Below, piece after piece: positions 574-25,597 of a stretch of 25,597 nt of DNA. The translations under genes and the position numbers were made by a program. The notes under the pieces are model-generated. The model had not been told where the DNA came from, made no database searches, and was given only the letters and a program-made list of their open reading frames with translations. Origin of the DNA: a virus (Duplodnaviria; Heunggongvirae; Uroviricota; Caudoviricetes); the IMG/VR virus record IMGVR_UViG_3300035208_001055, positions 120,494-146,090 of that record. One strand, given 5' to 3'. Numbering within the stretch: the first letter of the stretch is position 1; each line of letters begins with the position of its first letter.

Positions 574-589
574 GTGTTCTTAGCTACAA

Positions 590-1905: not shown

Positions 1906-1910
1906 TATTT

Positions 1911-1985: not shown

Positions 1986-1992
1986 ACATACG

Positions 1993-3586: not shown

Positions 3587-3595
3587 CAGTTTCTC

Positions 3596-4802: not shown

Positions 4803-4942
4803 TTATCACCTCGCCATAGTTTCAACAAGACCGGATGAAGACAAAAGAAACCATCCCGTTGGAAACTCTTGCCAAAGTAACCATTCACTCCAAGATACCA
4901 GACAAGACCGGCAACGGCAGCAATCCAGAATACCCGACTCAT
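4799..4942 (-). CDS. Small membrane protein (47 aa)
   Basis: Manual: MSRVFWIAAVAGLVWYLGVNGYFGKSFQRDGFFCLHPVLLKLWRGDK; GGGAG SD; stop overlaps the SprT ATG (ATGA). Confidence 0.65.
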   Translation of the reverse strand: MSRVFWIAAVAGLVWYLGVNGYFGKSFQRDGFFCLHPVLLKLWRGDK

Positions 4943-4961
4943 GTGTTCTCCCATATCGTAA

Positions 4962-5621: not shown

Positions 5622-5654
5622 TACGTAGTGAACCTTTCGTTCTCAGTGAATCTA

Positions 5655-6980
5655 CTAAGTTTTCCAGTACAGAGACAGTGCCTTGCGTGTACAGCGCTCT
5701 TGAAACTGGGCACCTGTTTCCCCGGCTCCATACAAGATCGTATCGTGCCACACACCGGGCCACTCTTTTAAGATTCGCTCGCAAAGAAGTTGACGACCTT
5801 CCTGTGACAACTCTTTCATTTCAAGGATGCGGTCAATGCGACCTGGACGGGTTGAGACATCGCCGTCAGGAATACCGAGTGCTGAGTCGAGTTTTTCAAG
5901 ACAATTCGTTGTGACGATAAGTAGCACACCATCCGCCCGTTCCACGCCGTCAAGACAATTCAGCAAGCAGTCAAACGATAGGTGCCCACCGGCTGTGTTC
6001 TCTCGTCCATTGAACACGTTATCAATGTCCTCGATCAACGCAATACATGGTACGTTGGCGAGCATATTCTTCCACGCTGCTTGCATTTCATTGTTGTAGA
6101 GCGTAGAAAGATTGTAGACGAAAATTGGCAAGTCGAAATCCTCGGCGACAGCACGGATAGTCGCCGTCTTTCCGGTTCCTGGTTTTCCGTGTAAAAGCCA
6201 ACTACGTCTCCACGGGATACCACGATCTTTGTACCAGTCTTCACTTGTCTTCCAGCGGCGAACTTCTTCCACCATCATCAACGCATCGGAATCGAGTGCG
6301 AGGTATGAAAGCGCGTTGCCATGATTGATGCGGCCTTCACCTAGATCACGTTCGTGCCAACGAAGCAATCGGTGTTGTGAGTGCAACTCACGAGACGAAC
6401 TACCACCGCCACACGCAGCTAACGTTGCTTCGCTGTCATTATTCGTGCTTGCTGGTTTTCCAGCAGTGCCGAAAATATGTCTGATGAAATAACGTGGATT
6501 CGCGGCCGTGTCGATTGTCGTGTGAAATTGGTTGTAGCTATCAGCCGATTCCTGAACCAGTTGGTCAATATCAAAAGTTCCACGGAAAAACGTCAACTGC
6601 ACACCTGTTTGTATGCAAGTGTCCGTTGTTCGTAGCTGCGCTTCTTCCTTATTCGATATGCGTGAAATCCAAATTGGACGCCACCCGTACCAGTAAAGTT
6701 TTGTCGTATTTCCAATCACTTCCATCGGAACGACTTGTCGGCGTTTTACCGGACGAACATACTCCCACCAACCAATATAACAACGAAGACCGAGGGGCGA
6801 AGTCTTGAAACTATGCCAAAAATGAAATGTCACGGCGTCCGAAAGAGAGCCGCGAACTTCACTCGATACGATGGCAAAACTAGCAATGGATTGCCAGAAA
6901 CCCTTTACATAACCCCAAAAAGCACCAAGAAAACCTGTAGCCGCAGCGCCACCAGCAACAATCCAGGCCCAGTCACTCAT
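5655..6980 (-). CDS. BCS1-like AAA+ ATPase with N-terminal transmembrane anchor
   Basis: Walker A LLHGKPGTGKT, Walker B LIEDID, LLNCLDGV, sensor-1 TTN, RPGRID Arg finger; WYKDRGIPWRR; hydrophobic N-terminus. Confidence 0.9.
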   Translation of the reverse strand: MSDWAWIVAGGAAATGFLGAFWGYVKGFWQSIASFAIVSSEVRGSLSDAVTFHFWHSFKTSPLGLRCYIGWWEYVRPVKRRQVVPMEVIGNTTKLYWYGWRPIWISRISNKEEAQLRTTDTCIQTGVQLTFFRGTFDIDQLVQESADSYNQFHTTIDTAANPRYFIRHIFGTAGKPASTNNDSEATLAACGGGSSSRELHSQHRLLRWHERDLGEGRINHGNALSYLALDSDALMMVEEVRRWKTSEDWYKDRGIPWRRSWLLHGKPGTGKTATIRAVAEDFDLPIFVYNLSTLYNNEMQAAWKNMLANVPCIALIEDIDNVFNGRENTAGGHLSFDCLLNCLDGVERADGVLLIVTTNCLEKLDSALGIPDGDVSTRPGRIDRILEMKELSQEGRQLLCERILKEWPGVWHDTILYGAGETGAQFQERCTRKALSLYWKT

Positions 6981-7353
6981 GGTTTTTCTCCTTGGATTCC
7001 GGTTTCTCTTTTTTCTTGTGCCACGGCGGCAATGCTAACGCCATCTCAGCGCAATACAATGCAAACTTCCTACTATAGTCAACGTGACCAGTGGCAGGAA
7101 TTTCGGCTCTCTCAATGTCCGCCAGCGTCACGAGATCAAGACCACGCTTCAATCGTTCAGCATTCACGGCGTCGAGCATGACGCCACGTTCATAGAGCAT
7201 CCACTCTAACGAGTCGCCAATCCAAACCATCTTTGTCGGACGCAGCACTTGGGCTGCTGCTAAAATCTTCAAAAATTCAGTGGCGAGACCGGGTAGAGCG
7301 AGCGCGGCTGCGGTTGTTGCAACAATTTCGAGCATTATTCCTCCGTTGACCAC
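6973..7353 (-). CDS. Hypothetical protein, hydrophobic N-terminus
   Basis: ORF tiles between the cyclophilin and AAA genes; exact start uncertain. Confidence 0.65.
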
Positions 7354-7757
7354 TCATTGATCGTGACTTTTTCTATCACGTCACCCTGCACGATGGAACG
7401 AACAACATCCATTCCCTCGATCACCTGTCCAAAAACAGAGTGTTTTCCATCTAGCCACGGACAGGCAACGTGTGTAATGAAAAATTGCGAGCTATTTGTA
7501 TTAGGACCCGCATTCGCCATCGACAAAGTACCCGGACCATAGTGCCGAAGCGTCGAGTGAAATTCATCCTCGAACATGTAACCAACATCGCCAGCGCCAG
7601 TTTGAGCCATGAAATTCGGGATCACACGATGGAACGGTTTTCCATCGTAAAAGCCAGTCCGCGCCAATCTCACAAAGTTCTTCACAGTCTTCGGTGCTCG
7701 CTCCGAAAGATAGGCGTAAATAAGACCGCGATTAGTACGGATTGTCACTGTCTTCAT
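7335..7757 (-). CDS. Cyclophilin-type peptidyl-prolyl cis-trans isomerase
   Basis: APKTVKNF...[17 protein letters not shown]...[19 protein letters not shown]...[15 protein letters not shown]; start moved to MKTVT (TGATG coupling). Confidence 0.95.
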
Positions 7758-8650
7758 CAAATGTCCTCCACAATCTCGTCCCACTTTTCAGAAACAGAAG
7801 TCAACTGGTCACGAGCAAGTTGCTGTTGTTCGACAGCCACGTCCCATGCTGCCATGTTCATCAGTCTCCGAAGATGATCGCTAATCAACCCGACAATTGT
7901 ACTCGGTTCCAGGGCGTCCAATTCCCAACTCTCGTCGCCGTACAACTCGCGGTAAGACTCATAGCGAGCGTCCGTCGCCTTCGCAAAATTAGGCGGCGGT
8001 TGATACTTGTCGATTTGAGATTTCAAGAGTGCGATCCGGTTAATCTCAACCGACGAGCCGAATAAGGAAAGACGGTCCTGAATATCGCGCGTCATGTCAA
8101 TGCCGCTGGGGTCGTGATCGCCAAGATGCAGGATCACGGTGTGTTTCCCGCACTTCTCCCGCTCAAGAAAACGTTGAGCCGCTGCCCACATCTCACTCTG
8201 ACTCGTGTAACCACGACACGCAAAGTAAGGCACGTCCATCTCGGCACAGACGCCTTCGATCACGCCAACAAGAGCGTCCTTCTCAATCCAGCACTCTACA
8301 TAGCAATCTTGTGTGTCCCACAAGTTGTGCCGAAATTGCTGGGCACACGCCCGCACAATATCACCAGGAGAATCCCAATGTGCATTCTCACGCATGTTAC
8401 GTGTGCGATCTTCAATCGCAAGCCAGTCGATCATACCGGCCAAACGGCCGTCATTGACAATGCTGCCAATGTTTTTGTACGACTGTTGCGTATTCGGAAC
8501 CAAGTCACGGCTGACAAACTGGTAATACAGTTGCCGCAAGGTCAACTTGTACCCCTGTTGCCAGTATTCCGTGATAATCTTGTTCGCTTGGTCGATGACG
8601 GCCAGCGAGTCGCTGCGAAAACGCTTCTTCACGTAACATCGTTTAGGCAT
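7757..8650 (-). CDS. TopoVI-A/Spo11/Mini-A-like protein (winged helix with Tyr + TOPRIM domain)
   Basis: LTLRQLYYQ (candidate catalytic Tyr), [10 protein letters not shown] (TOPRIM Glu), [15 protein letters not shown] (DxD), RIAL, WELDAL; start moved to MPKR with GGAG SD. Confidence 0.8.
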
Positions 8651-8660
8651 CTCAACACTC

Positions 8661-8915
8661 CTAGTCAACAAGTTCCAACAGAACACGAGCCGACATATTC
8701 GACTCCCAGAAAATCTCACGCACCTTGCAAGGTCCAAACGATGTGGAGACCGTATCGTTCAGCCGAAATTCTCGCCCGCGAACATCGGGTCGATCCGTCC
8801 GACCTTTCACTCGAAAGATGTAACGAATTTCCTGTCGCACTCTCTCCACACGTTCCTCCCGATCTTTCCTCGGTTGACGGGCATCACGCGGTCGCTTCGA
8901 TTGCTTGTCTGACAT
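8661..8915 (-). CDS. Basic hypothetical protein
   Basis: Start moved to MSDKQ (GGAG SD); Arg-rich N-terminus. Confidence 0.65.
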   Translation of the reverse strand: MSDKQSKRPRDARQPRKDREERVERVRQEIRYIFRVKGRTDRPDVRGREFRLNDTVSTSFGPCKVREIFWESNMSARVLLELVD

Positions 8916-8928
8916 CACTACTGCTCCA

Positions 8929-8963
8929 AAAAAGGGTACAAACAGACTCAAAAAGGGTACAAA
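8929..8963. repeat. 14-bp direct repeat AAAAAGGGTACAAA x2, 21-bp period
   Basis: Copies at 8929-8942 and 8950-8963, filling the intergenic gap. Confidence 0.85.
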
Positions 8964-8964
8964 G

Positions 8965-9606
8965 TCACGTCGTTAGCTTGAAAAAGGCGTCCCAACACTG
9001 GGTTCTCACCAGTGTATAACCATGCGGCTCCATGATCCAGCGAAGTCGCGCCAAAACTTCAGCGTCCTCCCGGTACTCCACAGAGATACGGTTGATGATA
9101 CGATTCGGAAATCGAAAGTATTCTTCGAGAACAGGCACTTCAGCGCCTTCAATATCGAGACTCAAGTAGTCGATCTGAGGTGGAGTAGTCTCTTCAAGAA
9201 TCTCCTGAAGAGTCTTAACAGGGACATAGATGCTAGTGACACCCAGACGTGCGGCCTCATCCTGCCAAGCTGGCGGGAGATAAACTGATAGCCCGCCCCA
9301 CATCCCATTCCGAGTGAACCGCCATTTCTCCCCCAGCCAATTAGACTGTGGCGCTACAGCGCCATTCCATGCCGCGCACCCCGGTCGATTCTTCGCAACT
9401 TGTTCAAATAGACATGGATCAGCTTCGACAAGAAGCCCCTTCCAACCAAAATATCTCTCCAAAGTCAATGTATTGCTATGTTGGACACCATCAAAAGCGC
9501 CAATTTCAACAAAGAAACCGTCTCGCGCACCCTGCGAATCTTCAACTACCCACCGATCTTGTTGCGTTGCGGGTTGTGAGTAGTAGATAATGTCGTCAGT
9601 CGTCAT
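8965..9606 (-). CDS. FkbM family (Methyltransf_21) SAM-dependent methyltransferase
   Basis: YSQ...QD, FFVEIGAFDG...SNTLTLE...WKGLLVEADP, IDYLSLDIEGAE; start moved to MTTDD (ATGA overlap). Confidence 0.9.
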   Translation of the reverse strand: MTTDDIIYYSQPATQQDRWVVEDSQGARDGFFVEIGAFDGVQHSNTLTLERYFGWKGLLVEADPCLFEQVAKNRPGCAAWNGAVAPQSNWLGEKWRFTRNGMWGGLSVYLPPAWQDEAARLGVTSIYVPVKTLQEILEETTPPQIDYLSLDIEGAEVPVLEEYFRFPNRIINRISVEYREDAEVLARLRWIMEPHGYTLVRTQCWDAFFKLTT

Positions 9607-10394
9607 ACGCCAACCTCCTGCAAAACCGGGCACGTAGGAATAACTCGTGGCGTGAGTTGTCCCAAGTAGCTGTCACCAAGGTATCGTTTAATGAGACGGT
9701 GAACGGTGCCTTTCGTCCAAGCGAATCCTCGACGGGTCACATAGCCTCGCTTGTTTAAGTGTTCGGTGATTTCTTGAAGCGTGCAACCCGAGTCTCGAAG
9801 TTCCCGTATCCACGGAATAATCGGCTCGTACCGTCTCATCATTGCGTCCTTGACATTCTTGTGAGCGATTTCTCGACCATGTTGGCAGCCCTGTCGGCGA
9901 CGTTCAGTACGTAGGAACATCCCATCTTTCGTCATTCCGTCCCAGTGGCCAGGACGAGCGGAACCAAGTGGAATGCCTTGAGCCTTCAATTCCGCTAATG
10001 CCTCCTTCGTTCGCTTCGAGATCAATCGGGCCTCTTCCTCGGCGACAGCAGCAAGAACATGAATCGTGATTCGATTGGCCGTAGGAACATCACACGCAAC
10101 AAACTCCAACCCGCTCTCCATCAACGTCGAAACAAAAGCGACATTACGAGCCAACCGATCAAGTTTGGCAATCACGAGAACAGCCCCCGCCGCATTCGCG
10201 TGCGCTATCGCTTTTTGCAACTCGGGCCGCTTCTTAGCCGACTTACCGGTTTCCGTCTCCGCATACTCTCCAATCACCTCTCCCGGTTTCCGAGTCGTGT
10301 AATCAGCAATCGCTCTGTGCTGAGCATCAAGACCGAGGCCGGACTCTTCTTGTTTTCGCGTAGAAACTCGGTAATAGTGGACATACTTTGTCAT
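9603..10394 (-). CDS. Serine recombinase (resolvase/invertase catalytic domain + C-terminal DNA-binding domain)
   Basis: YYRVST (catalytic Ser), GLGLDAQ, RPELQKA, AKLDRLARN, EARLISKRTKEAL. Confidence 0.92.
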   Translation of the reverse strand: MTKYVHYYRVSTRKQEESGLGLDAQHRAIADYTTRKPGEVIGEYAETETGKSAKKRPELQKAIAHANAAGAVLVIAKLDRLARNVAFVSTLMESGLEFVACDVPTANRITIHVLAAVAEEEARLISKRTKEALAELKAQGIPLGSARPGHWDGMTKDGMFLRTERRRQGCQHGREIAHKNVKDAMMRRYEPIIPWIRELRDSGCTLQEITEHLNKRGYVTRRGFAWTKGTVHRLIKRYLGDSYLGQLTPRVIPTCPVLQEVGV

Positions 10395-10621
10395 TCTTCC
10401 ACCTTTCTCAACAGGTCACGAATGGGTATGAGCATTTGTTCGCTGCCATCGAAGCAAGGACGAACCCACACTTGGTCAAATATGAGACAACAAATACCGT
10501 TGTCAACAATCTCCACCGGAATAACAAATCCTTTTACGGTGTTGCGATTCGTCGAACGGACCACCTCAATGTAGAAGATGTCGCCTAGACGTATCTCCGG
10601 CATGAATGATTGTAGCTTCAT
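10391..10621 (-). CDS. Small KOW/SH3-like protein
   Basis: IRLGDIFYIEV; similar to the adjacent gene; start moved to MKLQS (ATGA overlap). Confidence 0.65.
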   Translation of the reverse strand: MKLQSFMPEIRLGDIFYIEVVRSTNRNTVKGFVIPVEIVDNGICCLIFDQVWVRPCFDGSEQMLIPIRDLLRKVEE

Positions 10622-10839
10622 CGCTTCACCCGCTCCCACAACAGAGAAGGTGGGACCCAGATGACTGAAGAGTCACCAGCCACCGGCATCACTTCAACAG
10701 CGCTCCTTTGTGCCGTGAGATCGGTGACTTCGACCAACACGTAGACACTAAACGAATGGTTGCCATCGGCGGGCATCATCTTCAGATAGAGGATGTCGCC
10801 AATATGCAGGTCAGACTTGTTGCGTTTGTACTCGATCAT
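10618..10839 (-). CDS. Small KOW/SH3-like protein
   Basis: LHIGDILYLK...VEVTD...VWVPPSLL. Confidence 0.65.
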   Translation of the reverse strand: MIEYKRNKSDLHIGDILYLKMMPADGNHSFSVYVLVEVTDLTAQRSAVEVMPVAGDSSVIWVPPSLLWERVKR

Positions 10840-10854
10840 CCCGTCACTTACCTG

Positions 10855-11043
10855 TTACTTATGGCGCGAGATGCGTTTCAGCGTGTCAGCGATGAAGTTT
10901 GCCGTCTCGCGGTCGTGGCAAGAATTAAACCACACGCACCGCACGGGCCTCGTGCAATTTGTTTCGATCTCTTCAACCGTCATATCCGGGCCACCTGACT
11001 TCAACCTCACAATGTCGCCAATCCTAAACTGTCCATCTGTCAT
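10855..11043 (-). CDS. YodC/DUF2158-family small protein
   Basis: FRIGDIVRLKSGGPDMTV...VRCVWF signature. Confidence 0.85.
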   Translation of the reverse strand: MTDGQFRIGDIVRLKSGGPDMTVEEIETNCTRPVRCVWFNSCHDRETANFIADTLKRISRHK

Positions 11044-11047
11044 CGGT

Positions 11048-11266
11048 TCACCTCAACGGTTCAATTACAAAGTGACACAACCCAGCCGTAACTAAGGCTC
11101 GAAGCGAAGTCGAACATCCCTCACCGTCCCAAAGTTTACGGCTACACTCGCCACACAAACAGAGAACATTGTGCGGACGGCCTGCCTCATACGCAGCGTA
11201 CAAACCATACGTGATCTTTCGATCAGCCTTACGCACACTCCCCGGTAGACACATCTCGCACTGCAT
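11048..11266 (-). CDS. Small Zn-binding hypothetical protein
   Basis: Start moved to MQCEMC (GGAGG SD); CEMC...CGEC. Confidence 0.65.
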   Translation of the reverse strand: MQCEMCLPGSVRKADRKITYGLYAAYEAGRPHNVLCLCGECSRKLWDGEGCSTSLRALVTAGLCHFVIEPLR

Positions 11267-11630
11267 AGGTGTCCTCCACTCGGTTCGTCTCTTCAAGTAT
11301 AGCATCAATTCCTGAAAAGTCAACCCCAGTGCGACGGATTTCTTCGTTTTTCTGTGGGTTCCACGGGAAACACTCGCAAACAGGGCACCACAACTCGTCC
11401 TTGTGAGCGTCAAAGAAGCTGGTCGTCAGCCGCGCATCCCGACAATCCGGTGCGACCTCTTCAACCCGCGTCTTGAGATAGTTCGGTCCACCTATTCCCC
11501 GTTCCAACAATGGAAACGGATGCTTGCACTCTCGGTGCAGCATTCGATTCACTTCGCGGTGGTATTGCACCTCCGTGAGTCCCGGCGTCCTCTGTCGTAC
11601 TTCAAAGTATGTGCGGAAAAAGTCAAGCAT
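11229..11630 (-). CDS. Hypothetical protein
   Basis: 133-aa ORF in operon orientation; CPVC motif. Confidence 0.65.
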   Translation of the reverse strand: MLDFFRTYFEVRQRTPGLTEVQYHREVNRMLHRECKHPFPLLERGIGGPNYLKTRVEEVAPDCRDARLTTSFFDAHKDELWCPVCECFPWNPQKNEEIRRTGVDFSGIDAILEETNRVEDTYAVRDVSTGECA

Positions 11631-11632
11631 GA

Positions 11633-12013
11633 TTAGTCCTCACTCTTGAACTCGTGAATATAGCGATACAATCGCTTGTAAAGTCGATGCCATTTATTGG
11701 TTGGATCGTGCCATGCAACAACATACTTCAAGTCGTGCCCGCACTTCACCCAAAGCCACCGCATAAATGACCGAAACAACCAGACCTTAAACCGTATTCG
11801 CAGCCAAACAAACTGACGCCAGCGATACCCGAGATACCAGGACCACGTATTGAATCCGTGCTTATGTATCCCGCACTTCGCGCATGGCGGATTGTCGCCG
11901 TAGTAGAATTGCCCAGTGCGCCCATACCACTTCTCCGAATCAGTCCAATCCGATTGATCCAAGTAGCGGTGGCCAAAAATAAGGCACCATTCTAATCGTC
12001 GATACCTCACCAT
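11633..12013 (-). CDS. Hypothetical Trp/Arg-rich protein
   Basis: Start moved to MVRYRR (GGAG SD, overlaps upstream stop); WCLIFGH...CAKCG. Confidence 0.6.
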   Translation of the reverse strand: MVRYRRLEWCLIFGHRYLDQSDWTDSEKWYGRTGQFYYGDNPPCAKCGIHKHGFNTWSWYLGYRWRQFVWLRIRFKVWLFRSFMRWLWVKCGHDLKYVVAWHDPTNKWHRLYKRLYRYIHEFKSED

Positions 12014-12174: not shown

Positions 12175-12756
12175 TCAAAGATGTGCTGAGTTCATGGCGT
12201 CAGCTTTGTTTTTCAAATCTCGACGCGCTGCTACCCGTCGTTCTCGCTCTATCGCCGCCCGAGTCTGAATCCGTTTTTTCTCCGCGATGAATTGGTCTCG
12301 TATCGCCGTCAACGCTTCGTCACTCAAGTTGCAGAACCAAGAGGAGCTAACGGGAAAGACGTAAGAGTAATTGCCGTTGTTGTCAATGTAGCATGTGTCG
12401 GGTGAAACCCCGATTTCGATACCGTCAATGCACAAGGTTGCGACGACTTCAGAATGTGTCCCCAGATCGGCACCGAATATGTAACTGGTGCCTCGCGGGT
12501 CGCGGAAACTGATCGACAGGCGATTATTATGATCCTTCGGTTCCGGCGTCTTTGGATTCGCCAGCGACAACAGGCGGCGTCGAGTCGATTCCCACGGCTC
12601 ATTCGCAACACCGTGTCCGTTGTCTCGTCCATCGAGAATCTGGTTTATCAATTGACAAAGTGAAGCAACAGCTTGATCGCTCCCCCGCCAGTACGCCGGA
12701 TGAGCGAATGGTGTGCCATCTAACTCAACATCGTCAGCCGGTTTGTCCGTCGCCAT
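12175..12756 (-). CDS. Hypothetical protein
   Basis: Start moved to MATDK; C-terminal coiled-coil-like basic helix. Confidence 0.65.
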   Translation of the reverse strand: MATDKPADDVELDGTPFAHPAYWRGSDQAVASLCQLINQILDGRDNGHGVANEPWESTRRRLLSLANPKTPEPKDHNNRLSISFRDPRGTSYIFGADLGTHSEVVATLCIDGIEIGVSPDTCYIDNNGNYSYVFPVSSSWFCNLSDEALTAIRDQFIAEKKRIQTRAAIERERRVAARRDLKNKADAMNSAHL

Positions 12757-13087
12757 AAAGCCACCTGTGGTCAAAGTTGTCAGCCGCCATCTCCGGCGTA
12801 TCACCCGTTGCGCTCACGTCACCACACGCCGCGACCCACTGCCCGGTCCCGACATCAAAAGTCATTGAAGCCTGCACCATGCGAAACGGACGTTGATACT
12901 CGCGGCTCTGTTCAATCCATCGTTTCTTCGCATCCCGCTCAAGTTCAGCGGCTTCACGCCGCGCTATGGCCTCCAAGACCTGTTGCTGGCCAACCGCCTC
13001 AGCCGTCAGACATTCCGACTCCGCTTTCCGTTTGTAGGACTCGGACATCTGAATCTGCATGTCTTCAATTCGTTCCTGATGTGTCAT
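12734..13087 (-). CDS. Coiled-coil + HicB-like C-terminal domain protein
   Basis: WVAACGDVSATGDTPEMAADNF resembles the HicB N-terminal signature (G.T.EEA..N); start moved to MTHQ. Confidence 0.55.
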   Translation of the reverse strand: MTHQERIEDMQIQMSESYKRKAESECLTAEAVGQQQVLEAIARREAAELERDAKKRWIEQSREYQRPFRMVQASMTFDVGTGQWVAACGDVSATGDTPEMAADNFDHRWLYGDGQTG

Positions 13088-13088
13088 A

Positions 13089-13463
13089 TCAACGTGGCTG
13101 CGCTTGTGGCGCTGTCCCTCCGAGAAGTTGTAGGTTCGTAAGCATCGTTGCAAACTGGGAAAGTCGCACGGCGTGTTTGTCAATCAACTCATTCCGAGTA
13201 AATTCGTTCCCGACCAACTCTTCCGACTTGCTAACAATCTCCTCAGTGAGGTCTGTGAGCCACTGATTGTAGACCTTATTCAGTGTCTCGGCCGCTTCTC
13301 GGCAAGACCGGGCGAGAAACGGATTCGCCTTCTGCCACTGTGCAGCCGCGCTCGGTTGTGAGTCAGTTGTTCCAGTTACGTGCCGATGTATAGACCGTAT
13401 TAACTCAAGCTGCTGCGTCTGCAATGTCAAGAAGTTCTGTGCCAATTGTTCAAAGGATGCCAT
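13089..13463 (-). CDS. Helical hypothetical protein resembling a conserved Planctomycete protein
   Basis: WQKANPFLARSCREAAETL...GNEFTRNELIDK; resemblance recalled, not searched. Confidence 0.65.
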   Translation of the reverse strand: MASFEQLAQNFLTLQTQQLELIRSIHRHVTGTTDSQPSAAAQWQKANPFLARSCREAAETLNKVYNQWLTDLTEEIVSKSEELVGNEFTRNELIDKHAVRLSQFATMLTNLQLLGGTAPQAQPR

Positions 13464-13477
13464 TCTAATCGTCCTCG

Positions 13478-13756
13478 CTAATTGAAATCACTAGGATCGA
13501 CAGCGTGCATGTGCTCACACGTGCATTCGTCGTTCAAATTAAACAATGCTCGACGGACAGAACCTTCATGTTGTCCCCAAATCGGGCCAACTACGCAACC
13601 TGTCTCAAGACACTCTGCAAAGACGCAGGGTACTTCCTTTCCAAAGTCGCCAACTTCCTCGGTGTAAATGATCTTCGCAAGCGGCTTCTTTGGAGTGCTC
13701 TCTACGTCCCCGAACAAATAGTCCATCATCTCCTCGGCCGTCATGTCGTCGTTCAT
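13478..13756 (-). CDS. Acidic Cys-containing hypothetical protein
   Basis: Start moved to MNDD (GGAGG SD). Confidence 0.7.
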   Translation of the reverse strand: MNDDMTAEEMMDYLFGDVESTPKKPLAKIIYTEEVGDFGKEVPCVFAECLETGCVVGPIWGQHEGSVRRALFNLNDECTCEHMHAVDPSDFN

Positions 13757-13760
13757 GCTA

Positions 13761-13958
13761 CTACCTCCGAGCAATTTCCGTGCCATCATCCTCAACATAC
13801 TCGTGCTCTTTGCACCACTCGCAGAGTTCGTCGATCACTTCCAACGCGATCTCACCGAGACTCACTGCGGCAAGAGACAACAAGGCAAGCGTTATCCAAA
13901 CCGGACAGCCACACAGCCACAAGCGCCACCGCCACGGGTTCTTGAGTTGGAATTTCAT
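13761..13958 (-). CDS. Small membrane protein
   Basis: Start moved to MKFQL (ATGA overlap, GGAGG SD); hydrophobic segment VWITLALLSLAAVSL. Confidence 0.65.
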   Translation of the reverse strand: MKFQLKNPWRWRLWLCGCPVWITLALLSLAAVSLGEIALEVIDELCEWCKEHEYVEDDGTEIARR

Positions 13959-14302
13959 ACGGCCTCCCTCTCTTGGGTGTTCACTTTTGGCAACGCCACG
14001 TTGCCGTCTGTTGCATCGTTTACACGCGGTTCCAGACCGAGTTCCACCAGCAGCCTCACCAACACGTCCCCGTGGCACGCCAGGGGCTTGCAGTGGCACC
14101 CCAGACGCTTGCCAACGAGTTGCGGCAGAGCGGCCAGGAGTTCAGGCGACTGCCGCACATGCGCCTCGTACAACGCAATAGCCTTCTCACGAGTGATCCT
14201 CTGGTATGGGTCGATGTGGTGCGGATTGCCCCAGATTGAGCCTCGACCGATGTAAACATCGAATCCACCAGGGTCACGAACATTTACGACGATTGTTTCC
14301 AC
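13955..14302 (-). CDS. DUF4326 domain protein
   Basis: DVYIGRGSIWGNP...REKAIALYE...LVGKRLGCHCKPLACHGDVL. Confidence 0.9.
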   Translation of the reverse strand: METIVVNVRDPGGFDVYIGRGSIWGNPHHIDPYQRITREKAIALYEAHVRQSPELLAALPQLVGKRLGCHCKPLACHGDVLVRLLVELGLEPRVNDATDGNVALPKVNTQEREAV

Positions 14303-14711
14303 GTCCCCTCCCGAGTTCCCGCTTGATCTTCCGCTTCAACTCCTTGAAAATGAGGCCAGAGACCAAACACAACATCTCCTCAAAGTCACGTTTGAGCCAA
14401 CGGGATTTATTGTCATACTTCCGCAGGTAGTCGGCTATCGACCACGCCATGTGAATTGACTCGTGCAGCAACGTCTCATCCCGAAGAAAATCTTCAGAAA
14501 ATAAAACACAGCCGAGCCACTGTGTATTTTTCTGTGGTTTATAGGCTATCACGCAGGCTTTAGACTGGCCCTTACTGTTACCTCTGAAGTTCCCTAATTT
14601 CAAACGATATAACTCGCCACGACGTTGCTGTCGATGATTCTTAAAGACAACAACGTCCCACCGAAAATTCTCGCCAGACCGGCCCAATCCGATGTTAAAC
14701 TTTATTGCCAC
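14274..14711 (-). CDS. Zincin-like metallopeptidase (HExxH) #1 of tandem trio
   Basis: LLHESIH ... FEEMLC (third-ligand Glu candidate). Confidence 0.7.
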   Translation of the reverse strand: MAIKFNIGLGRSGENFRWDVVVFKNHRQQRRGELYRLKLGNFRGNSKGQSKACVIAYKPQKNTQWLGCVLFSEDFLRDETLLHESIHMAWSIADYLRKYDNKSRWLKRDFEEMLCLVSGLIFKELKRKIKRELGRGRGNNRRKCS

Positions 14712-14722
14712 GATGTTACCCG

Positions 14723-15136
14723 TCAGTCATTTTGATATTTCTCGTGAAAATCATCTCTAAACTTCCGAGCCAACGAATAGGCACGTCGTTCCACGTTTCG
14801 GTGCCCAGGAGACTTCTTATCGCGGTACTGTTCGTAGTGACAAAACTCGTGCATTATTGTGACAATAAATTCATCGAGTCGTTGTTGAAACGTGAGTCCG
14901 CGAAACTTCTTGTGAAAATGTTGAACAAGAATGATGCAATGAACCGGAACAAAATAACCTACCTGATCGTCGTGTCCATTCCACAGTACGCTTCCGGGTT
15001 GTTCCTTTGTCACAAAAATAAGGAGATTATGTTTGATCTTCTGGGTGTCACGTAACCATTTGCCAACAGCAATCGCAAATCCGTGGTATGTCGGATCGAC
15101 GCCGGGCTGAAACCGTGCTTCGACAACCTTTCTCAC
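14723..15136 (-). CDS. Zincin-like metallopeptidase (HExxH) #2 of tandem trio
   Basis: GYF...TIMHEFCHYEQ...VERRAY. Confidence 0.7.
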   Translation of the reverse strand: MRKVVEARFQPGVDPTYHGFAIAVGKWLRDTQKIKHNLLIFVTKEQPGSVLWNGHDDQVGYFVPVHCIILVQHFHKKFRGLTFQQRLDEFIVTIMHEFCHYEQYRDKKSPGHRNVERRAYSLARKFRDDFHEKYQND

Positions 15137-15158
15137 CTCGTGAATCTCTCCGACTTCA

Positions 15159-15545
15159 TCATGTTAGACCCCTACAATAGAAGATCAACTCCTGCAAAGT
15201 TTTACCGACAGCCCACGCCAGCATCTCCTCGTCCTTTGACTTTCGTATCCGTTTCACGTAGTGGACGGCCGCGTGAGTTGCCTCGTGTGCCAGTATTTCG
15301 TAGTCAATGTGTTCCATCGAAAGCAAAATATACCCGAGAAAAGGATCGGTTGAACGCTTCCCTTTGTCAAATCGTTCAATCTGACGGGGCATCACAATAG
15401 CAGCAAAATCACACCGCTCTTTCCCTTCTGAGCGGCGTTTATAGCCATTGTACATCTTCAGGTGTGATGGATACACTATCACTTTATAGTAGCGATATTG
15501 CTTACCACGGACACCGCCTGGATACACACGAAAAGACACTGCCAT
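15159..15545 (-). CDS. Zincin-like metallopeptidase (HExxH) #3 of tandem trio
   Basis: ILAHEATH...DEEMLAW; aligns with #1. Confidence 0.7.
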   Translation of the reverse strand: MAVSFRVYPGGVRGKQYRYYKVIVYPSHLKMYNGYKRRSEGKERCDFAAIVMPRQIERFDKGKRSTDPFLGYILLSMEHIDYEILAHEATHAAVHYVKRIRKSKDEEMLAWAVGKTLQELIFYCRGLT

Positions 15546-16132
15546 TAACGTGCTCTCTCCTGCGCCCGTTCCCGATGAACTGCCTCAAGGCGATTGAACT
15601 TCTTGACCACCCCGCCGAACCCGAGTCCCCACCAGTCAACGACCGGCCACGTCCAACTCATAGGCGCACCGTCCGGCCGGTGACTCCCGTATTCCAACAC
15701 GCGGAAGTCATGCCACGCACCGGGGCGCAACTTAGCGGAGAGAAAACTCCGCACGTACTTGGAGGCCGTGGACAGCCAGATTGTCTTCGGTATCTCGAAA
15801 TGCCGGGCCACGGCTGAATCTAATTCCAACTCGTAGCTACTGGCGATATATCGCTCACCGTTCGACCGTGTTGGAGTGTAGGTCGCCGTCTTTATCACGG
15901 TCTCTTCCGTGTTGCCCGTGAACCGTGCCTCGAAGTGCGGGCCAAGATTGAAGTCTCGCTTCCCCTCGGGAACCATGTAGACCAACACGTAGTTCCCGTA
16001 GTTTGGATCACCCTGCCGGGTGACGAGCCGCAATGTCGGCCGGGTCATGGCGCTCTCGGGCGTCCCGTACTTCAACTCAATGTGGTTGCACCGGTCAAAC
16101 AACTCGTTCTGTGTCTCTTCGATCTGTCCCAC
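15545..16132 (-). CDS. Hypothetical protein
   Basis: 195-aa ORF, GTG start with GAGGTG SD, stop coupled to the next start. Confidence 0.7.
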   Translation of the reverse strand: MGQIEETQNELFDRCNHIELKYGTPESAMTRPTLRLVTRQGDPNYGNYVLVYMVPEGKRDFNLGPHFEARFTGNTEETVIKTATYTPTRSNGERYIASSYELELDSAVARHFEIPKTIWLSTASKYVRSFLSAKLRPGAWHDFRVLEYGSHRPDGAPMSWTWPVVDWWGLGFGGVVKKFNRLEAVHRERAQERAR

Positions 16133-16146
16133 GGTTCACCTCTCAA

Positions 16147-16356
16147 TCAACATCTTTGGCTGTGTGTTCGCACTGTTGAACGCGAAGGTCCCACCGGCTC
16201 CAAACCGAAGGTCTTGGCGATCTTGTTTCCGACCTCTATCTCGTCCTGTATCAGGTATCCCCTGCCGAAAAAGCACATCAGGAACCTATGGATCGTTCTC
16301 GCCTCATCCTCACTGAGGATCATAATAGGCGAGCCATCTATGTCGGTGCTGGGCAT
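16147..16356 (-). CDS. Hypothetical protein
   Basis: Start moved to MPSTD (AGGAG SD). Confidence 0.6.
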   Translation of the reverse strand: MPSTDIDGSPIMILSEDEARTIHRFLMCFFGRGYLIQDEIEVGNKIAKTFGLEPVGPSRSTVRTHSQRC

Positions 16357-16364
16357 GTCGGCTC

Positions 16365-16550
16365 CTATTGTATTTCCTTGTTGATCTTGCGTATCAAAAA
16401 GGTGACTGCTTCCATGTTCCACTCGTCGGGTGTCCCTTCCAGCAGAAACACCTCCATGATCTCCTCTCGCATCCACTGTGGTAGTGTCTCAGCGTGCCGG
16501 TGCCACATCAGTTGCAACTTCGTCATCGCCTGTTGTCGTTTCGACATCAT
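16365..16550 (-). CDS. Hypothetical protein
   Basis: GGAG SD, helical 61 aa. Confidence 0.65.
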   Translation of the reverse strand: MMSKRQQAMTKLQLMWHRHAETLPQWMREEIMEVFLLEGTPDEWNMEAVTFLIRKINKEIQ

Positions 16551-16580
16551 TGGTCTCCTAACTTTCTCCCAACCTTCTCC

Positions 16581-16772
16581 TCAAATGGAAAGGATCACCA
16601 CGTGGCCGGTTTTACGTCTCATGTTCGTCCTCAATTGTACGGCGAGACATCCCACGTCGATGATCGTATTCCAATCCCCGGCGTCTACTTCAATAAACAC
16701 ATCGAGTTCCAGCAGGTCGGGGTCTGTTTTGACAGCCCGATTCAGTTTCTCTACAAAGTCGGCCAACTTCAT
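16581..16772 (-). CDS. Hypothetical protein, first gene of the leftward run
   Basis: Start moved to MKLADF (GAGGAG SD). Confidence 0.65.
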   Translation of the reverse strand: MKLADFVEKLNRAVKTDPDLLELDVFIEVDAGDWNTIIDVGCLAVQLRTNMRRKTGHVVILSI

Positions 16773-16900
16773 TGCTCTCTCCTCTGCTTTATCTCCTACC
16801 CGCGAGGTGCGGTGTATCAACATCCCACGACACAATCCCCGCAGTGTTTACCCACAGTCGCCCTCGGAACACTATCGGAATCACCCGCGAGATGCGTTGT

Positions 16901-16929
16901 ATCGTAAACGTAAGGTCCTATGCTGTCAA
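16901..16929 (-). promoter_or_regulatory. sigma70-type promoter for the leftward arm
   Basis: TTGACA (16929-16924), 17-nt spacer, TACGAT (16906-16901). Confidence 0.75.
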
Positions 16930-17255
16930 GGGTTACGGACATGATTCTATGCGTATTGTACTCTTGCGCCTCGCGGGTGCGTCACCTAACCCCAGTCAGC
17001 GAGCCAAGTTCCGTCAAAACACGTGTTCTTTCGTGTGTAACACTGGCACCCTTAACTCACGTGCCTGCTTAGTGTTACGGCCAACGGAAACTGTTTCTAT
17101 ACAAACCTGGCTTATTACCTATATTGTTTTTATTTAGCCCTATTTGATTTACTATAGGGGATAATCAGACTATGTATACAAACGCTCCCTGGGAGTCGTA
17201 AGTTCGTATGCAGTCACGTGTTAAGTGCTGCGTTTTACTCCCAGACATGACATGA

Positions 17256-18152
17256 CTAATTTACACGTCTTGACGCAACTCCTTGTGTCACAACGTCTTC
17301 AGTGGGATAAACTAGCCCCAACGCACTGAGTTTCCGATCATACAGCGCCCAGAACGCCGGGTCCCCTGTTGAGCGGTCATTTGGGTCGCGGATGGGGATG
17401 TCGTGTTCTTTCATCAACTTGCGGTCCTCGCGGGACCAGCGGAGGCGAAAGGCTTTTCGTGCGGGCGGGGCGTTTGGATAGCGGGTGCCGTTTAATAGAA
17501 CGCCCTCCCGCCCCGTGGCCCGTGTGAATTTCCCTGATTGTCCAAGTTGTGAGCGATACTCTTGGGCTTTTTTTCGGGCCTCTACCCGGTCGAAAATGTT
17601 GTCCTCTAAGATTTGCAGGATAGGTTCACGACCACTTTTGTAGATGTCGGTGAGCCATTGTTGGTATGGAGTAATTGGCTCTAGTTTCCCTTCGTGTTGT
17701 TTAATGCGGTTCCACTGTCGAAGGGCAGATCGCTTGTAGCCGTAGCCAATATAACCTATTGACTGTGTGTGGGTATCTGTTAGCTTAAAGACACATAGTG
17801 CCGGGTCATAGAGTGACCGCTTAGGAGGTTGCCTACGGGAGCTTGTGGGGCCTGTGCAGTCAATTCCAGTGGACTTTGTATCTCGGATCAACTCGTGGAC
17901 CTTCAACTTCGCCTCTTCCTCACTGAGATTCGTGTAGAGAACTTCGATGAAAGGTTCCATCTTCATTGAGATAAGAGCCTGTTGACAGACCTCTACTGGA
18001 TCGTTCCAGTCGGGTTTCTTTAGATGGAGTTTGCTGGCATTCCATCTGCGAGCATGTCGTCCCGAGAAGCAGTAGTCGATATAGTACGGGTCGTGGCTTC
18101 TACGCGGATCGAGATACCAGAACACGTCGTAGGTTTTTTGCTTTCGCGCCAT
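17256..18152 (-). CDS. Protein with two tandem, degenerate GIY-YIG-like domains
   Basis: Domain 1 YDVFWYLDPR..DPYYIDY...EVLYTNLSEEEAKLKVHELI; domain 2 CVFKLTD...IGYIGYG...QILEDNIFDRVEARKKAQEY. Confidence 0.65.
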   Translation of the reverse strand: MARKQKTYDVFWYLDPRRSHDPYYIDYCFSGRHARRWNASKLHLKKPDWNDPVEVCQQALISMKMEPFIEVLYTNLSEEEAKLKVHELIRDTKSTGIDCTGPTSSRRQPPKRSLYDPALCVFKLTDTHTQSIGYIGYGYKRSALRQWNRIKQHEGKLEPITPYQQWLTDIYKSGREPILQILEDNIFDRVEARKKAQEYRSQLGQSGKFTRATGREGVLLNGTRYPNAPPARKAFRLRWSREDRKLMKEHDIPIRDPNDRSTGDPAFWALYDRKLSALGLVYPTEDVVTQGVASRRVN

Positions 18153-18407
18153 CGGTTGGCCTCCTATCTTATCTAACGGCAGAACCGGGGGACATTTCCA
18201 CCTAAATCTTGAAAATTCTCTGGATTTCTCCGTGACGCGGCAGAGTCCCTGGATTCGGCCAGAAATCCGCGACCGGCTCCCGTGCGCCCTGTGTTACCGA
18301 TCAAAAACGTTTACACGCAATTGACCCCGCCGTCGAGTTGGAGATCAGCGTCAGGGGAGCACCCCCACTGACGGGGGAGGCGGGATACCGTCAAGCGGGG
18401 CACAATT

Positions 18408-18431
18408 GACCCTCCCCTCCCCCGGAGGGTC
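18408..18431. repeat. GC-rich inverted repeat at the compositional boundary
   Basis: GACCCTCC-8nt-GGAGGGTC; CAATTGACCC direct repeat at 18318 and 18403. Confidence 0.7.
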
Positions 18432-18641
18432 GGCCGGAGGGTTGCCACCCCCTTATAAGCCCATTTATTCGCTATAATCAGCACATTTTGCATTAGTTGC
18501 GCTTGCATTGTTGCCCAACAATGGGGCGCAACCCGCTAGGCGCGTGGATAGAGGGCGGGGCAGGGGGCAGCATAGGGGCTATGACGTAAGGTGTTATGGT
18601 TGTAGCAGTTACGACGACTGCCTACTTTATAGGCATTGTGC

Positions 18642-19197
18642 GACTGCCAAATTGGCAGTCTCAAGCGGCGACCGGAAAATCGTTAAAAATGGCGCAACCG
18701 CGCGCGTCGTTTCGGGTAGCCAGTAGAGGGGATTAGTCACTAATCTAGTGAACATTGCTTACGTCATACATTCGCTACATAAGTCATTACCCGCGAGGTA
18801 CTTAGAACTATAACCATTGCCATAACCATCATAGATTACAGCCCTATCATGCCATAGTTTAGTCATTTAGTAATCATTAGTTTTGCTTATGCTATCCCGA
18901 CACAAGATAAGGGACGATGATACACACGGACTATTCGTTACTGCCTACTTATTGAGCATGACCCTAAAGGTAGGGATAGGCAGCATAGACCTAACTACTA
19001 GCATAGTCAGTAGTTACGCTCTATTGCATACTGCCTACTTATTGAGCATATCCGTTAGCACTAGCAAGGGAGGGAGGGCGATAGTAGACTGCCATAATGG
19101 CAGTTAGAAACACCCCTCTATCTGTAGGGTAGACTGCCATAATGGCAGTCGATAAGCGTTAAACTGCCATTATGGCAGTCGTAACCTGATAGAGGGG
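18642..19197. repeat. Array of 19-bp palindromes GACTGCCA-N3-TGGCAGTC (4 copies) with nested inverted and direct repeats
   Basis: Copies at 18642-18660, 19087-19105, 19132-19150 and 19162-19180; CCCCTCTATC/GATAGAGGGG inverted repeat encloses copies 3-4; TACTGCCTACTTATTGAGCAT at 18939 and 19029. Confidence 0.9.
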
Positions 19198-19361
19198 CTT
19201 CTATTTTCGGTTCGCCTTGCGGGGCAAGTAGAGGGCAGGGTATTCTAGGCCGATTGCCACCTTAGAACGCAAGGGGCGCAAAGCTAGACCTATCGTGATT
19301 ATCGGGGTTGTAGCGATTAGGTAAGTTAGGCAAGATGCGCCTATTGATAGCCTACCATTTG

Positions 19362-19485
19362 CTTGCACAATACCATTTCGGGTGGTATCGTGCAAGAGCG
19401 GGGTGCATATCGGACCACGGGCAGGGCGCGCAATGGGAAGCGCAAAGGGAACCACCCGCTAGTGTGGATACACTAACGGGTGGTT
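19362..19485 (-). ncRNA. Candidate structured RNA segment: two long hairpins
   Basis: 14-bp stem (19362-19396) and 16-bp stem (19450-19485); each has one internal pair that is C-A on plus but G-U on minus. Confidence 0.4.
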
Positions 19486-19555
19486 AAGGGAGGGGCAATC
19501 CCTACTGAATGAATTGTGCTGATTGTAGCGATTGTGCCGATTAGTTAGGCTTGGA

Positions 19556-19753
19556 TTAGGCTTGCAATCCACGGGCCGTCATTTCCCCTAGAATCGCTAC
19601 AATCGTCGTGGCCATTGTGGGCCATACAAACCGCAATGTCCGCAAGTCTATCCCAAACGACATACCCCCATTTAAGCGCTCTTCCATGCGCTTCCAGACT
19701 TGTCGGTACAATCGGCATAACTGGCCATCCGTCAATCTTGACAGACTCGGCAT
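19556..19753 (-). CDS. Hypothetical protein (65 aa), lone leftward gene in the CAG-depleted region
   Basis: MPSLSRLTDGQLCRLYRQVW...; GGAGGT SD; own promoter upstream. Confidence 0.7.
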   Translation of the reverse strand: MPSLSRLTDGQLCRLYRQVWKRMEERLNGGMSFGIDLRTLRFVWPTMATTIVAILGEMTARGLQA

Positions 19754-19797
19754 AATCGTTACCTCCGTTGTTGTCGTTGCAATCGCATTGTTCGTCA

Positions 19798-19991
19798 CCA
19801 CCCCGCCCGTGGTCAATTCCGGGCGGGGTGGGCAGGGATGTACTATCCCCGTGGTATTCCAGAACATACCCACCTATCGGCCATTATCCGATGGCGTGTT
19901 TTCCATGCGCCTATTAGTGGATATGCCCGGTTTCCTCTTGACCCCTCTTGTATCGTTGCCCCGCCCCCTACTGACACAATAGGGGGCGGGG
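19798..19991. repeat. Two perfect 12-bp GC-rich inverted repeats in the leader of the leftward transcript
   Basis: CCACCCCGCCCG-10nt-CGGGCGGGGTGG (19798-19831); CCCCGCCCCCTA-9nt-TAGGGGGCGGGG (19959-19991). Confidence 0.85.
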
Positions 19992-20065
19992 GCTTTTCAC
20001 TAGGGCAGGGGTGCTACCTCTTCGCCAACTAGGCGGGGGTTGCCCTCTTCTGCCCGAACTATTCA

Positions 20066-20093
20066 AGCATACCACGGATTTGGGCGGGGTCAA
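20066..20093 (-). promoter_or_regulatory. sigma70-type promoter with extended -10
   Basis: TTGACC, 16-nt spacer, TGn-TATGCT. Confidence 0.6.
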
Positions 20094-20370
20094 GCAAAAT
20101 TCACGGCGCGCCGTCAGAAAGTAGAATCGGCGCGCCGGAATAATCGGAACTATGCACCACCCGCGAGGCGCAAATATACAATACACAAGAGGTTATGTCA
20201 TTTTATGGTGGAGGTTAGCGGCCGTTATCTTAGCTCTTGCTTAGGTAGGGTTGCGACGATTGTTCAAGATGCAACGATAATTAGTGTCACGCGGGTGGTT
20301 GCAGACGGAATATGCCGATTGTAGGGTTGTGGTAAACCACGCTATCCTAGAAAGATTTTGGGATTTCCAT

Positions 20371-20398
20371 TTGACAAGCTACGGGATAGAGCTAGATT
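20371..20398 (+). promoter_or_regulatory. sigma70-type early promoter PR1
   Basis: TTGACA-N16-TAGATT, followed by AAGTAGAAG and a strong SD. Confidence 0.7.
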
Positions 20399-20423
20399 TC
20401 AAGTAGAAGAGGAGGGGAGAACA

Positions 20424-20579
20424 ATGGAAGGGATGATAACCAAAAAAGACTTGTTTTTTCACCCGCTCTTGATTATCGGGCTTTTCGGGTTGCGGGTTTA
20501 CTTGCGGGGTTGTGCGGCCGGTTTGATCGGCCGGAAAACTACTTTCCTTGCAATCGCATTTGACACTAGGAGGGCTTGA
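20424..20579 (+). CDS. Small hydrophobic protein (51 aa)
   Basis: Start moved to MEGMIT (GAGGAGG SD, downstream of PR1). Confidence 0.65.
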   Translation: MEGMITKKDLFFHPLLIIGLFGLRVYLRGCAAGLIGRKTTFLAIAFDTRRA

Positions 20580-20581
20580 CA

Positions 20582-21116
20582 ATGGCGACGTTAGACATAC
20601 ACCCATTTGAGAAGCGCGGGCTAGGGGTTGCCCCCTTCCGGTTTGTTGGAATGTCCGAAAAAGTCTACTGCGCTTGTCCGGGCGCGCCAGAGCAACCGGG
20701 CGGGTGTTGCGATTTTTGCGGCAACGGGATTAGGTATTGCTTCCATATCCATAGCGCCGACGGGAAAGATTTTATTGTCGGTTGTGAATGCGTCAAGCGG
20801 ACGGATAAGGCTTGCCTAGTGAATGCTACGGAATTTGATAGGGCTGTTGCGGCACACAAGCGCAAACTAGCGGCCGACCGGCGCGCCGTTGTGGTTGCGC
20901 GTGAAGAGAAGAGAATCGGGGAAGCGCTTGCCCTCTATCCTACGGTTAGGGATGAAATGGCGAAACAGCCCCACCCCGCAAGCTAAACCGGGCGGATGGT
21001 TTGATGGTAAGACTCTTGCCGATTATGTCGATTGGATGATTGTACGGGCAGGGCATAGCGGCCGGTTGCAGATAGCCCGCAAAATCGAACAATTCACGGG
21101 GAAAAGGGAGGGCTAG
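20582..21116 (+). CDS. Cys-rich Zn-binding phage protein, split by a +1 frameshift near 20975
   Basis: HPFEKRGLGVAPFRF...GGCCDFCG...VGCEC...PHP ends at TAA 20986; +1 frame continues PQAKPGGWFDGKTLADYVDWM to TAG 21116 with no SD/start of its own. Confidence 0.65.
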
Positions 21117-25532: not shown

Positions 25533-25541
25533 ACCACGGGC

Positions 25542-25597
25542 GCAACGGCGGGGCAACGGCGGGGCAACGGCGGGGCAACGGCGGGGCAACGGCGGGG
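25542..25597. repeat. 11-bp tandem repeat (GCAACGGCGGG) x5+, runs off window
   Basis: Five perfect units 25542-25596. Confidence 0.95.

Follow-up and report, generated by a model that had tools for sequence, protein, structure and literature searches.

Four copies of a 17-bp dyad at the divergent strand switch of an uncultured 146-kb phage: a possible operator array with counterparts in unrelated virus lineages

The 25,597-nucleotide window analysed here is the final 25.6 kb of G000, the full 146,090-bp IMG/VR virus record IMGVR_UViG_3300035208_001055 (Caudoviricetes), and it carries four palindromes of the form ACTGCCA-WWW-TGGCAGT at positions 18642, 19087, 19132 and 19162 (window coordinates throughout, unless another genome is named), just where an earlier note made from the sequence alone had placed them. 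These palindromes are real and non-random: 100 dinucleotide shuffles returned 0 matches, the core TGCCA-N3-TGGCA occurs 4 times in G000 against 0.14 expected, and a search of the rest of the genome, which the note had proposed, found at ≤1 mismatch only the same four copies in all 146,090 bp. Our leading, though tentative, reading of the sequence is that they are dyad-symmetric, operator-type duplex sites for a dimeric, sequence-specific DNA-binding protein, placed at the central switch of the genome.

Form and conservation of the palindromes

The sequence GACTGCCA-N3-TGGCAGTC is exact in copies 1 and 3, with one end mismatch each in copy 2 (which terminates ...GTT) and copy 4 (which begins AACT...); copies 2 and 3 run opposite to copy 4, and copies 2 and 4 are, as had been claimed, exact reverse complements of each other over 19 nt. 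The earlier description as a 19-bp palindrome with an 8-bp stem and a 3-nt loop holds insofar as each copy folds into a hairpin (7–8 bp stem, 3-nt loop) at −6.8 to −8.6 kcal/mol (z about −6), but because the centre is always A/T, a better description is a 17-bp dyad centred on a single W. Together with three same-strand motifs that carry the ACTGCC half-site, the four palindromes present this half-site in both direct and inverted orientation; these motif-2 elements, each joining a good ACTGCC half-site to a weaker, wider-spaced partner, probably serve the same system as auxiliary sites. The dyad within motif 2a, the half-site repeat 90 bp apart and the arms bracketing copies 3 and 4 had also been picked out by the earlier note, and all three are present as described. 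The elements are:

18617–18636, plus strand: motif 2a, ACTGCCTACTTTATAGGCAT; includes the 17-bp dyad TGCCTA-CTTTA-TAGGCA (18619–18635) and has the ACTGCC half-site in common with the others
18642–18660, no strand: palindrome copy 1, GACTGCCAAATTGGCAGTC; lies 8 nt beyond motif 2a, within the left block, which is highly conserved
18940–18959, plus strand: motif 2b, ACTGCCTACTTATTGAGCAT
19030–19049, plus strand: motif 2c, ACTGCCTACTTATTGAGCAT; 90 bp after motif 2b
19087–19105, no strand: palindrome copy 2, GACTGCCATAATGGCAGTT; matches the reverse complement of copy 4 exactly
19113–19197, no strand: 85-bp inverted repeat, arms CCCCTCTATC (19113–19122) and GATAGAGGGG (19188–19197) around copies 3 and 4; specific to G000
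19132–19150, no strand: palindrome copy 3, GACTGCCATAATGGCAGTC; 45 bp from copy 2
19162–19180, no strand: palindrome copy 4, AACTGCCATTATGGCAGTC; 30 bp from copy 3

As single-stranded DNA the 85-bp inverted repeat folds at −34 kcal/mol (z = −10), and Rfam returned only spurious miRNA-precursor matches for it.

Across 49 sites from six lineages (that of G000 and lineages B–F, described below), the pattern of conservation indicates that selection is on half-site sequence and not on base pairing. The site logo has an invariant TGCCA-N3-TGGCA, C at ±7 in 92% of sites and a centre of W only, while complementarity at ±1, ±8, ±9 and ±10 is found in 26, 24, 26 and 17 of the 49 sites, the level expected for independent halves. 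Outer pairs change without compensation in L008, a relative of G000, and in G005 (lineage C), and half-sites stand in direct repeat, in which they are unable to fold, in L070 and L079 (lineages E and F). Taken with the AAA/TTT centres described below and the lack of a T-run after the copies, these comparative data point to recognition of double-stranded DNA, and the weight that the earlier note gave to hairpins and cruciforms is not borne out. Intrinsic termination was also rejected: none of the four copies is terminator-like or followed by a T-run, and the true terminators of G005 sit beside its sites.

The conservation comparison of the palindrome region uses L008, the one relative obtained from a single metagenome scan; it is syntenic with window 12176–20426, the protein neighbouring the palindromes (298 aa) being 79% identical. 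Noncoding flanks at 18300–18880 and 19395–19620 show 95–100% identity between the two genomes, and the stretch from 18880 to 19390 is unalignable. Within this scrambled centre L008 nonetheless has two sites with the core CTGCCA-WWW-TGGCAGTC, 23 bp apart, and copy 1 is retained with one change in its left arm, making three sites with the core in all; the L008 palindromes break outer pairs and have AAA/TTT centres. The ACTGCC...GGCA motif is retained three times, with motif 2a conserved, TACTGCC...GGCAT at the position of motif 2b and GCATACTGCC...GGCA at that of motif 2c. The outer, nested inverted-repeat scaffold, which the earlier note had described and which is present in G000, is absent from L008. 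Since the core is kept within a scrambled centre from which the scaffold has been lost, the core word is under selection and the nested scaffold is not; the conservation in related genomes on which the earlier note had staked its proposal is thus seen for the core. An annotated phage collection held no relatives for the palindrome region, nor did viral contigs searched via neighbouring proteins and with an exact conserved 20-mer; a literature search for the motif strings gave unrelated primer matches only, and Rfam and tRNA scans gave nothing relevant.

The palindromes lie at the sole divergent strand switch of G000, with minus-strand genes running from ~138.6 kb down to 20 kb and plus-strand genes from ~140.9 kb across the contig end as far as 20 kb. 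This switch is also the cumulative GC-skew minimum, a coincidence confounded by the strand switch itself. Around the palindromes, 18153–~20580 is, on the comparison with L008, noncoding and strongly constrained DNA: its listed 'ORFs' differ from L008 by substitutions at 3–11% of positions compared with 15–27% in neighbouring genes, and they are without the strong third-position excess of genuine genes in the same codon-phase test (for example, 119/21/39). The surrounding features are:

17256–18152, minus strand: gene for the 298-aa protein, first of the leftward block; candidate tandem GIY-YIG-like protein
18153–20580, no strand: noncoding region of ~2.4 kb; listed ORFs without codon-phase bias
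18730–18880, no strand: AT-rich block between copy 1 and copies 2–4; 33–43% GC against 51% for the genome, >95% identity in L008
18880–19390, no strand: fast-evolving spacer with motifs 2b and 2c and copies 2–4; alignable with L008 only at the motifs
20371–20398, plus strand: sigma-70-type promoter TTGACA-16-TAGATT, the first in the rightward early arm; ahead of the first real gene (20582–20986), which encodes a Cys-rich 134-aa protein

The same palindrome in unrelated lineages

When IMG/VR and a collection of one genome per species were scanned, the palindrome proved over-represented in at least five further lineages, which share essentially no proteins with G000 or with each other; across the palindrome-bearing lineages GC content ranges from 38% to 67%. 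Lineage B comprises G004 (80 kb) and L006; lineage C is G005 (88 kb; locus L104); lineage D is an integrative element (L005/L007) that is also integrated in a metagenome-assembled genome (MAG) labelled Deltaproteobacteria (L014); lineage E is L070, and lineage F is L079/G007. An initiator-type gene adjoins the sites in four of the six lineages, namely B (G004/L006), D (L005), E (L070) and F (L079).

In L070, a pure AT core of ~60 bp lies between mirror-image arrays that comprise half-sites and two full palindromes, and the array is directly upstream of a PriCT-2/D5_N/DUF5906 primase-helicase. Viewed as a whole, L070 11135–11420 is a ~300-bp inverted repeat, its arms carrying GACTGCC half-sites and a full palindrome around the AT core, between a sigma-70-like gene and the SF3 primase-helicase; judged by its layout, it is a textbook-looking origin. 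Three sites in G004/L006 are just downstream of a Prim-Pol/D5 helicase gene and more follow in successive intergenic gaps of the same operon, so that G004 counts 8–11 sites over 7–15 kb, 8 of them strict (≤1 mismatch) in the intergenic gaps of that one operon. In L079, a palindrome, two direct GACTGCCACTTTGTCC repeats and a second palindrome occupy a gap of low GC that immediately follows an HTH_36-type winged-helix gene; an intragenic origin in the style of lambda O was ruled out there by third-position GC. The three sites of L005 lie between an HTH_17 gene and the gene for a 274-aa protein with Rep-like atlas neighbours.

The 24–26 sites of G005 fall within 2.5–12.7 kb and are arranged around promoters: of 13 perfect TTGACA-16/17-TATAAT promoters, every one of them leftward, 12 carry one or two sites 15–108 bp upstream of the −35 element, with canonical intrinsic terminators beyond the sites. 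A second dyad, TGCYYA-N5-TRRGCA, related to motif 2 of the window, adjoins palindromes here too. Read along L104 2000–13500, this early region repeats about a dozen times a unit that opens with an intrinsic terminator and continues with a single palindrome or a pair around a 12-nt G/C-rich spacer, then a perfect sigma-70 promoter and a small accessory gene or tRNA.

A host regulon of which the phages might partake (for example, a LexA-like box) was rejected, as a 3.1-Mb MAG has the motif only inside its integrated element; in 400 genomes of that MAG's phylum the motif is at control level. Five Mycobacterium genomes (L009–L013) have pairs of TTACTGCCA-N3-TGGCAGTAA, 33–34 bp apart, in the space that separates a TetR (EthR-like) gene from a DUF4383 gene, and each pair is probably the operator of that TetR-family regulator. 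Like the phage sites, this operator has ACTGCCA/TGGCAGT half-sites around a 3-bp centre, in two copies in a divergent promoter region; unlike them, it has a centre that contains G/C, where the phage sites have A/T. The occurrence of such half-sites and spacing at a TetR-family divergent operator indicates that the geometry of the palindrome suits a helix-turn-helix dimer, but as no TetR protein is found in G000 or the other viral contigs, the likeness is most likely due to convergence.

Operator, origin and other explanations

Of the proposals made in the earlier note, an operator array and a replication origin are the two that the comparative evidence supports. For an operator array, the recognised word would be the 17-bp dyad (G/T)ACTGCCA-WWW-TGGCAGT(C/A), with one monomer per CTGCCA; protein on the three clustered sites (45 and 30 bp apart) would bind cooperatively and might reach copy 1, at a distance of 445 bp, by looping out the AT-rich block, and occupancy would set the balance or timing of leftward (middle/late) against rightward (early) expression. 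Replication from the palindrome region might be licensed by the same protein, and an origin role could coexist with the operator role. Protein binding, the dimeric nature of the binder, cooperativity or looping and the regulatory outcome are what we infer here, and several results weigh against them. No TetR, HTH_17 or sigma factor was found in G000 in a search for the cognate regulator; all-against-all BLASTP and phmmer found no protein family in three or more palindrome-bearing lineages; and the 298-aa protein beside the sites resembles a GIY-YIG nuclease, not a repressor. An identical site in six unrelated lineages with no detectable shared protein is unusual for operator–repressor pairs and is not how such pairs usually travel. 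No convincing, conserved promoter adjoins the window palindromes, and the early promoters of G000 are without palindromes. Finally, three G004 sites lie inside longer hairpins with covarying flanks and arms of 15–17 bp, a hint of a structural role there.

The main rival is a replication origin, in which the palindromes and the direct ACTGCC half-sites would be iterons for the initiator of the phage (for example, its SF3/D5-type primase-helicase), which would assemble on inverted sites either side of the AT-rich block and melt it. We consider it rather unlikely for the window, although it accounts for the initiator-type genes beside the sites in four lineages and for half-sites that are both direct and inverted in the window, L070 and L079, and although G000 has genes for both an SF3 helicase and a DNA polymerase of its own and the sites flank a block of 33–43% GC at the cumulative GC-skew minimum. 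Against this, the strand switch confounds the skew switch, DnaA boxes are not enriched, and the block is only moderately AT-rich, the most AT-rich stretch of the genome lying elsewhere (17088–17178). No initiator is adjacent in G000, whose SF3/DUF5906 helicase (G000 83466–86150) is 53 kb from the palindromes and, although of the same Pfam family as those of G004 and L070, has no specific similarity to them. The 24–26 sites beside promoters over 10 kb in G005 and the 8–11 sites over 7–15 kb in G004 are not origin-like, and non-homologous initiators with one specificity would be needed. Iteron-type origins that include a dimer-bound inverted-repeat operator are known from plasmid Rep systems, lambda O/ori, P4 alpha ori/crr and the origins of SF3-helicase viruses; the sites resemble these in having half-sites direct and inverted, beside an initiator gene and an AT-rich stretch, best in L070 and L079, but differ in that no initiator gene is adjacent in the window, the AT block is moderate and the L079 sites follow the winged-helix gene instead of lying inside it.

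Two other known arrangements bear on an operator array. In the central control region of phi29, p4 sites lie between divergent early and late promoters, and as predicted for G000, several imperfect inverted-repeat sites for one dimeric regulator are clustered in a single divergent intergenic region between opposed gene blocks; however, no p4-like protein was found in G000, the site sequence is unrelated, and the G000 site recurs in unrelated phages. The 'stoperators' of mycobacteriophage L5 gp71 and the KorB operators of IncP plasmids are many copies of one site spread across a genome, to which the single short site in most intergenic gaps of a gene block in G005 (24–26 sites) and G004 (8–11) is comparable; the L5 sites are, however, asymmetric and orientation-dependent, those of G000 stay within a single locus, and neither a gp71-like nor a KorB-like protein turned up.

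The palindromes could instead act as hairpins in RNA or single-stranded DNA, either as protein-bound stem-loops (in processing, antitermination or stabilization) or as decoys of CRISPR repeats. The 7–8 bp stem and 3-nt loop of each copy, the covarying G004 sites and the intergenic position of sites within operons are in keeping with this, and the invariant stem CUGCC/GGCAG preceded by A is one that we take to be the stem of type I-F repeats; a target in the host would explain sharing without a common phage protein. Solitary CRISPR repeat units act as anti-CRISPR RNAs, and the base of the stem is essential for Cas6f binding (PMC10651486). Like those RNA anti-CRISPRs (PMC10651486), the palindromes are short, conserved, intergenic stem-loop units in unrelated viruses that need no phage-encoded partner, but similarity is confined to the 5-bp stem, and direct half-sites and uncompensated changes argue against a role as RNA. 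There is no excess pairing at variable positions, outer pairs are broken uncompensated in L008 and G005, half-sites in direct repeat cannot fold, and no T-run follows the copies. No array-like ACTGCC-N5-GGCAG cluster occurs in MAG G003, the carrier of the L005 element, a result to be read with the caution that MAGs are often without arrays. Rfam, which presumably holds CRISPR-DR families, gave no match at E ≤ 10 for the window or E ≤ 5 for G005 beyond spurious miRNA, tRNA and leader matches. We therefore regard hairpins of either kind as improbable to a marked degree.

A T5-like injection stop or terminal structure, either of which the earlier note had listed, would have the cluster end a first-injected, defence-evading segment or mark a physical genome end. 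CAG/CTG is depleted (ratio 0.25–0.49) from ~19200, just right of copy 4, into G000 1–12,000, an arm of ~18 kb that carries eight sigma-70-type early promoters; its strongest losses are of ACAGG, GAGCC, CCAGG and CAGTC/GACTG (3 observed against 43 expected for the last). The depletion reported in the earlier note is thus real, but as the DNA to the left of the palindromes is not depleted, they sit at the boundary of the depleted arm and do not, as the note had it, keep CTG/CAG inside it. The start of this arm immediately right of copy 4 and the place of the cluster within a large, repeat-rich noncoding region are suggestive of such a structure; that boundary, however, equally fits the start of an early transcription unit, and the other palindrome-bearing phages have no such depletion, so that no link between depletion and palindrome is seen in other lineages. 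In other lineages, one of them an integrative element, the palindromes have initiator genes or promoters as neighbours. The contig ends are tandem arrays ~6.4 kb away; since the depleted arm is contiguous across them, the break in the contig probably falls within a repeat rather than at a real terminus. A T5-like function is accordingly very unlikely in our judgement.

Scarcely credible are hairpin promoters of the N4 type for a virion-carried RNA polymerase, to which the note had drawn a weak analogy, although the short stem, the 3-nt loop and the few copies near the early region fit them in geometry. No ORF of G000 is longer than 1239 aa, and this largest one is tape-measure-like, which leaves no gene for a giant virion RNA polymerase. 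The eight promoters of the early arm are conventional sigma-70-type ones without palindromes; the four copies point both ways, and it is the half-site sequence that is conserved, not the hairpin.

The search for the protein that would bind the putative operators also extended beyond G000. TetR, HTH_17, Sigma70_r2, ParB_N and HTH_36 are none of them common to the lineages, and genes neighbouring the window sites gave no matches to DNA-binding families. A ParB/parS centromere was rejected, as ParB_N proteins, present in G000 at 68 kb and 83 kb, are missing from G004, G005, G006 and G007. A tandem beta-beta-alpha-alpha-beta-alpha pattern, with two GIY-YIG-like units by motif and predicted secondary structure, suggests that the 298-aa protein is tandem GIY-YIG-like; its structure model (pLDDT 44) was too poor for a fold search, and a profile search of 1.8 billion representatives turned up a single remote homologue, making it a near-orphan. 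In G004, too, palindromes are followed by a small ORF with a weak 30-aa match to the 298-aa protein. The only candidate for the binder, a weak one far from the sites, is a 77-aa helix-turn-helix-like early protein (G000 5678–5911).

We also entertain, as an improbable but broader possibility, that the 17-bp dyad CTGCCA-W3-TGGCAG and its companion TGCYYA-N5-TRRGCA form a pan-lineage cis-element of phages and mobile elements that fires or insulates early promoters and replication modules and whose factor is not inherited with it. That factor might be a conserved host protein without a chromosomal regulon, such as a defence or nucleoid component, or the role might fall to convergent, non-homologous initiators or regulators. 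The binder itself would tell apart a common host factor, an exchanged, very small regulator module and convergence on one site. Should the operator reading hold, the locus would be the master switch, perhaps the origin, of an uncultured 146-kb phage, with the 19-bp duplex as a handle for isolating the controlling protein; the site pairs upstream of 12 of the 13 perfect G005 promoters offer a directly testable system.

Other observations on G000

The eight plus-strand promoters, at G000 892, 2309, 4049, 5582, 7096, 8525 and 9894 and at window 20371, have the common form TTGACA-16-TAnAcT followed by TGTAGAG or TGAATAG, and by sequence they look like early promoters for host RNA polymerase; several have short tandem repeats of their own ahead of them, for example three copies of CAGAAATCTTTG. 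Both contig ends (G000 1–110 and window 25540–25597) are tandem arrays, with six copies of a 19-nt unit, CCACGGGCAGGGCAACGGA, at the left end and an 11–12-nt unit, GGGGCAACGGC, at the right; the core of the left-end unit, CCACGGGCAGGG, recurs at window 19415.

The most AT-rich 60-mers of G000 (27–28% GC; 17088–17178) lie just downstream of the 298-aa gene, within a gap without coding signal (16794–17255). At G000 82398–86150, a minus-strand ParB_N-domain gene is paired divergently with the SF3 primase-helicase gene, the sole gene on the plus strand within the long minus block; this small pair is another candidate replication locus.

The noncoding region at 18153–20580 evolves 3–6 times more slowly than the adjoining genes and matches no Rfam family; it may harbour structured RNAs not yet described or a dense set of control elements. 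Within it, a hairpin with a 16-bp stem at 19450–19485 is perfect in L008. Two short words are concentrated near the palindromes: TAGAGGG has 5 of its 12 genome copies within this 1.5-kb region (18549, 18724, 19114, 19190 and 19229), and TTGTAGCGATT has 3 of its 4 in the palindrome region (19308, 19523 and 19592).

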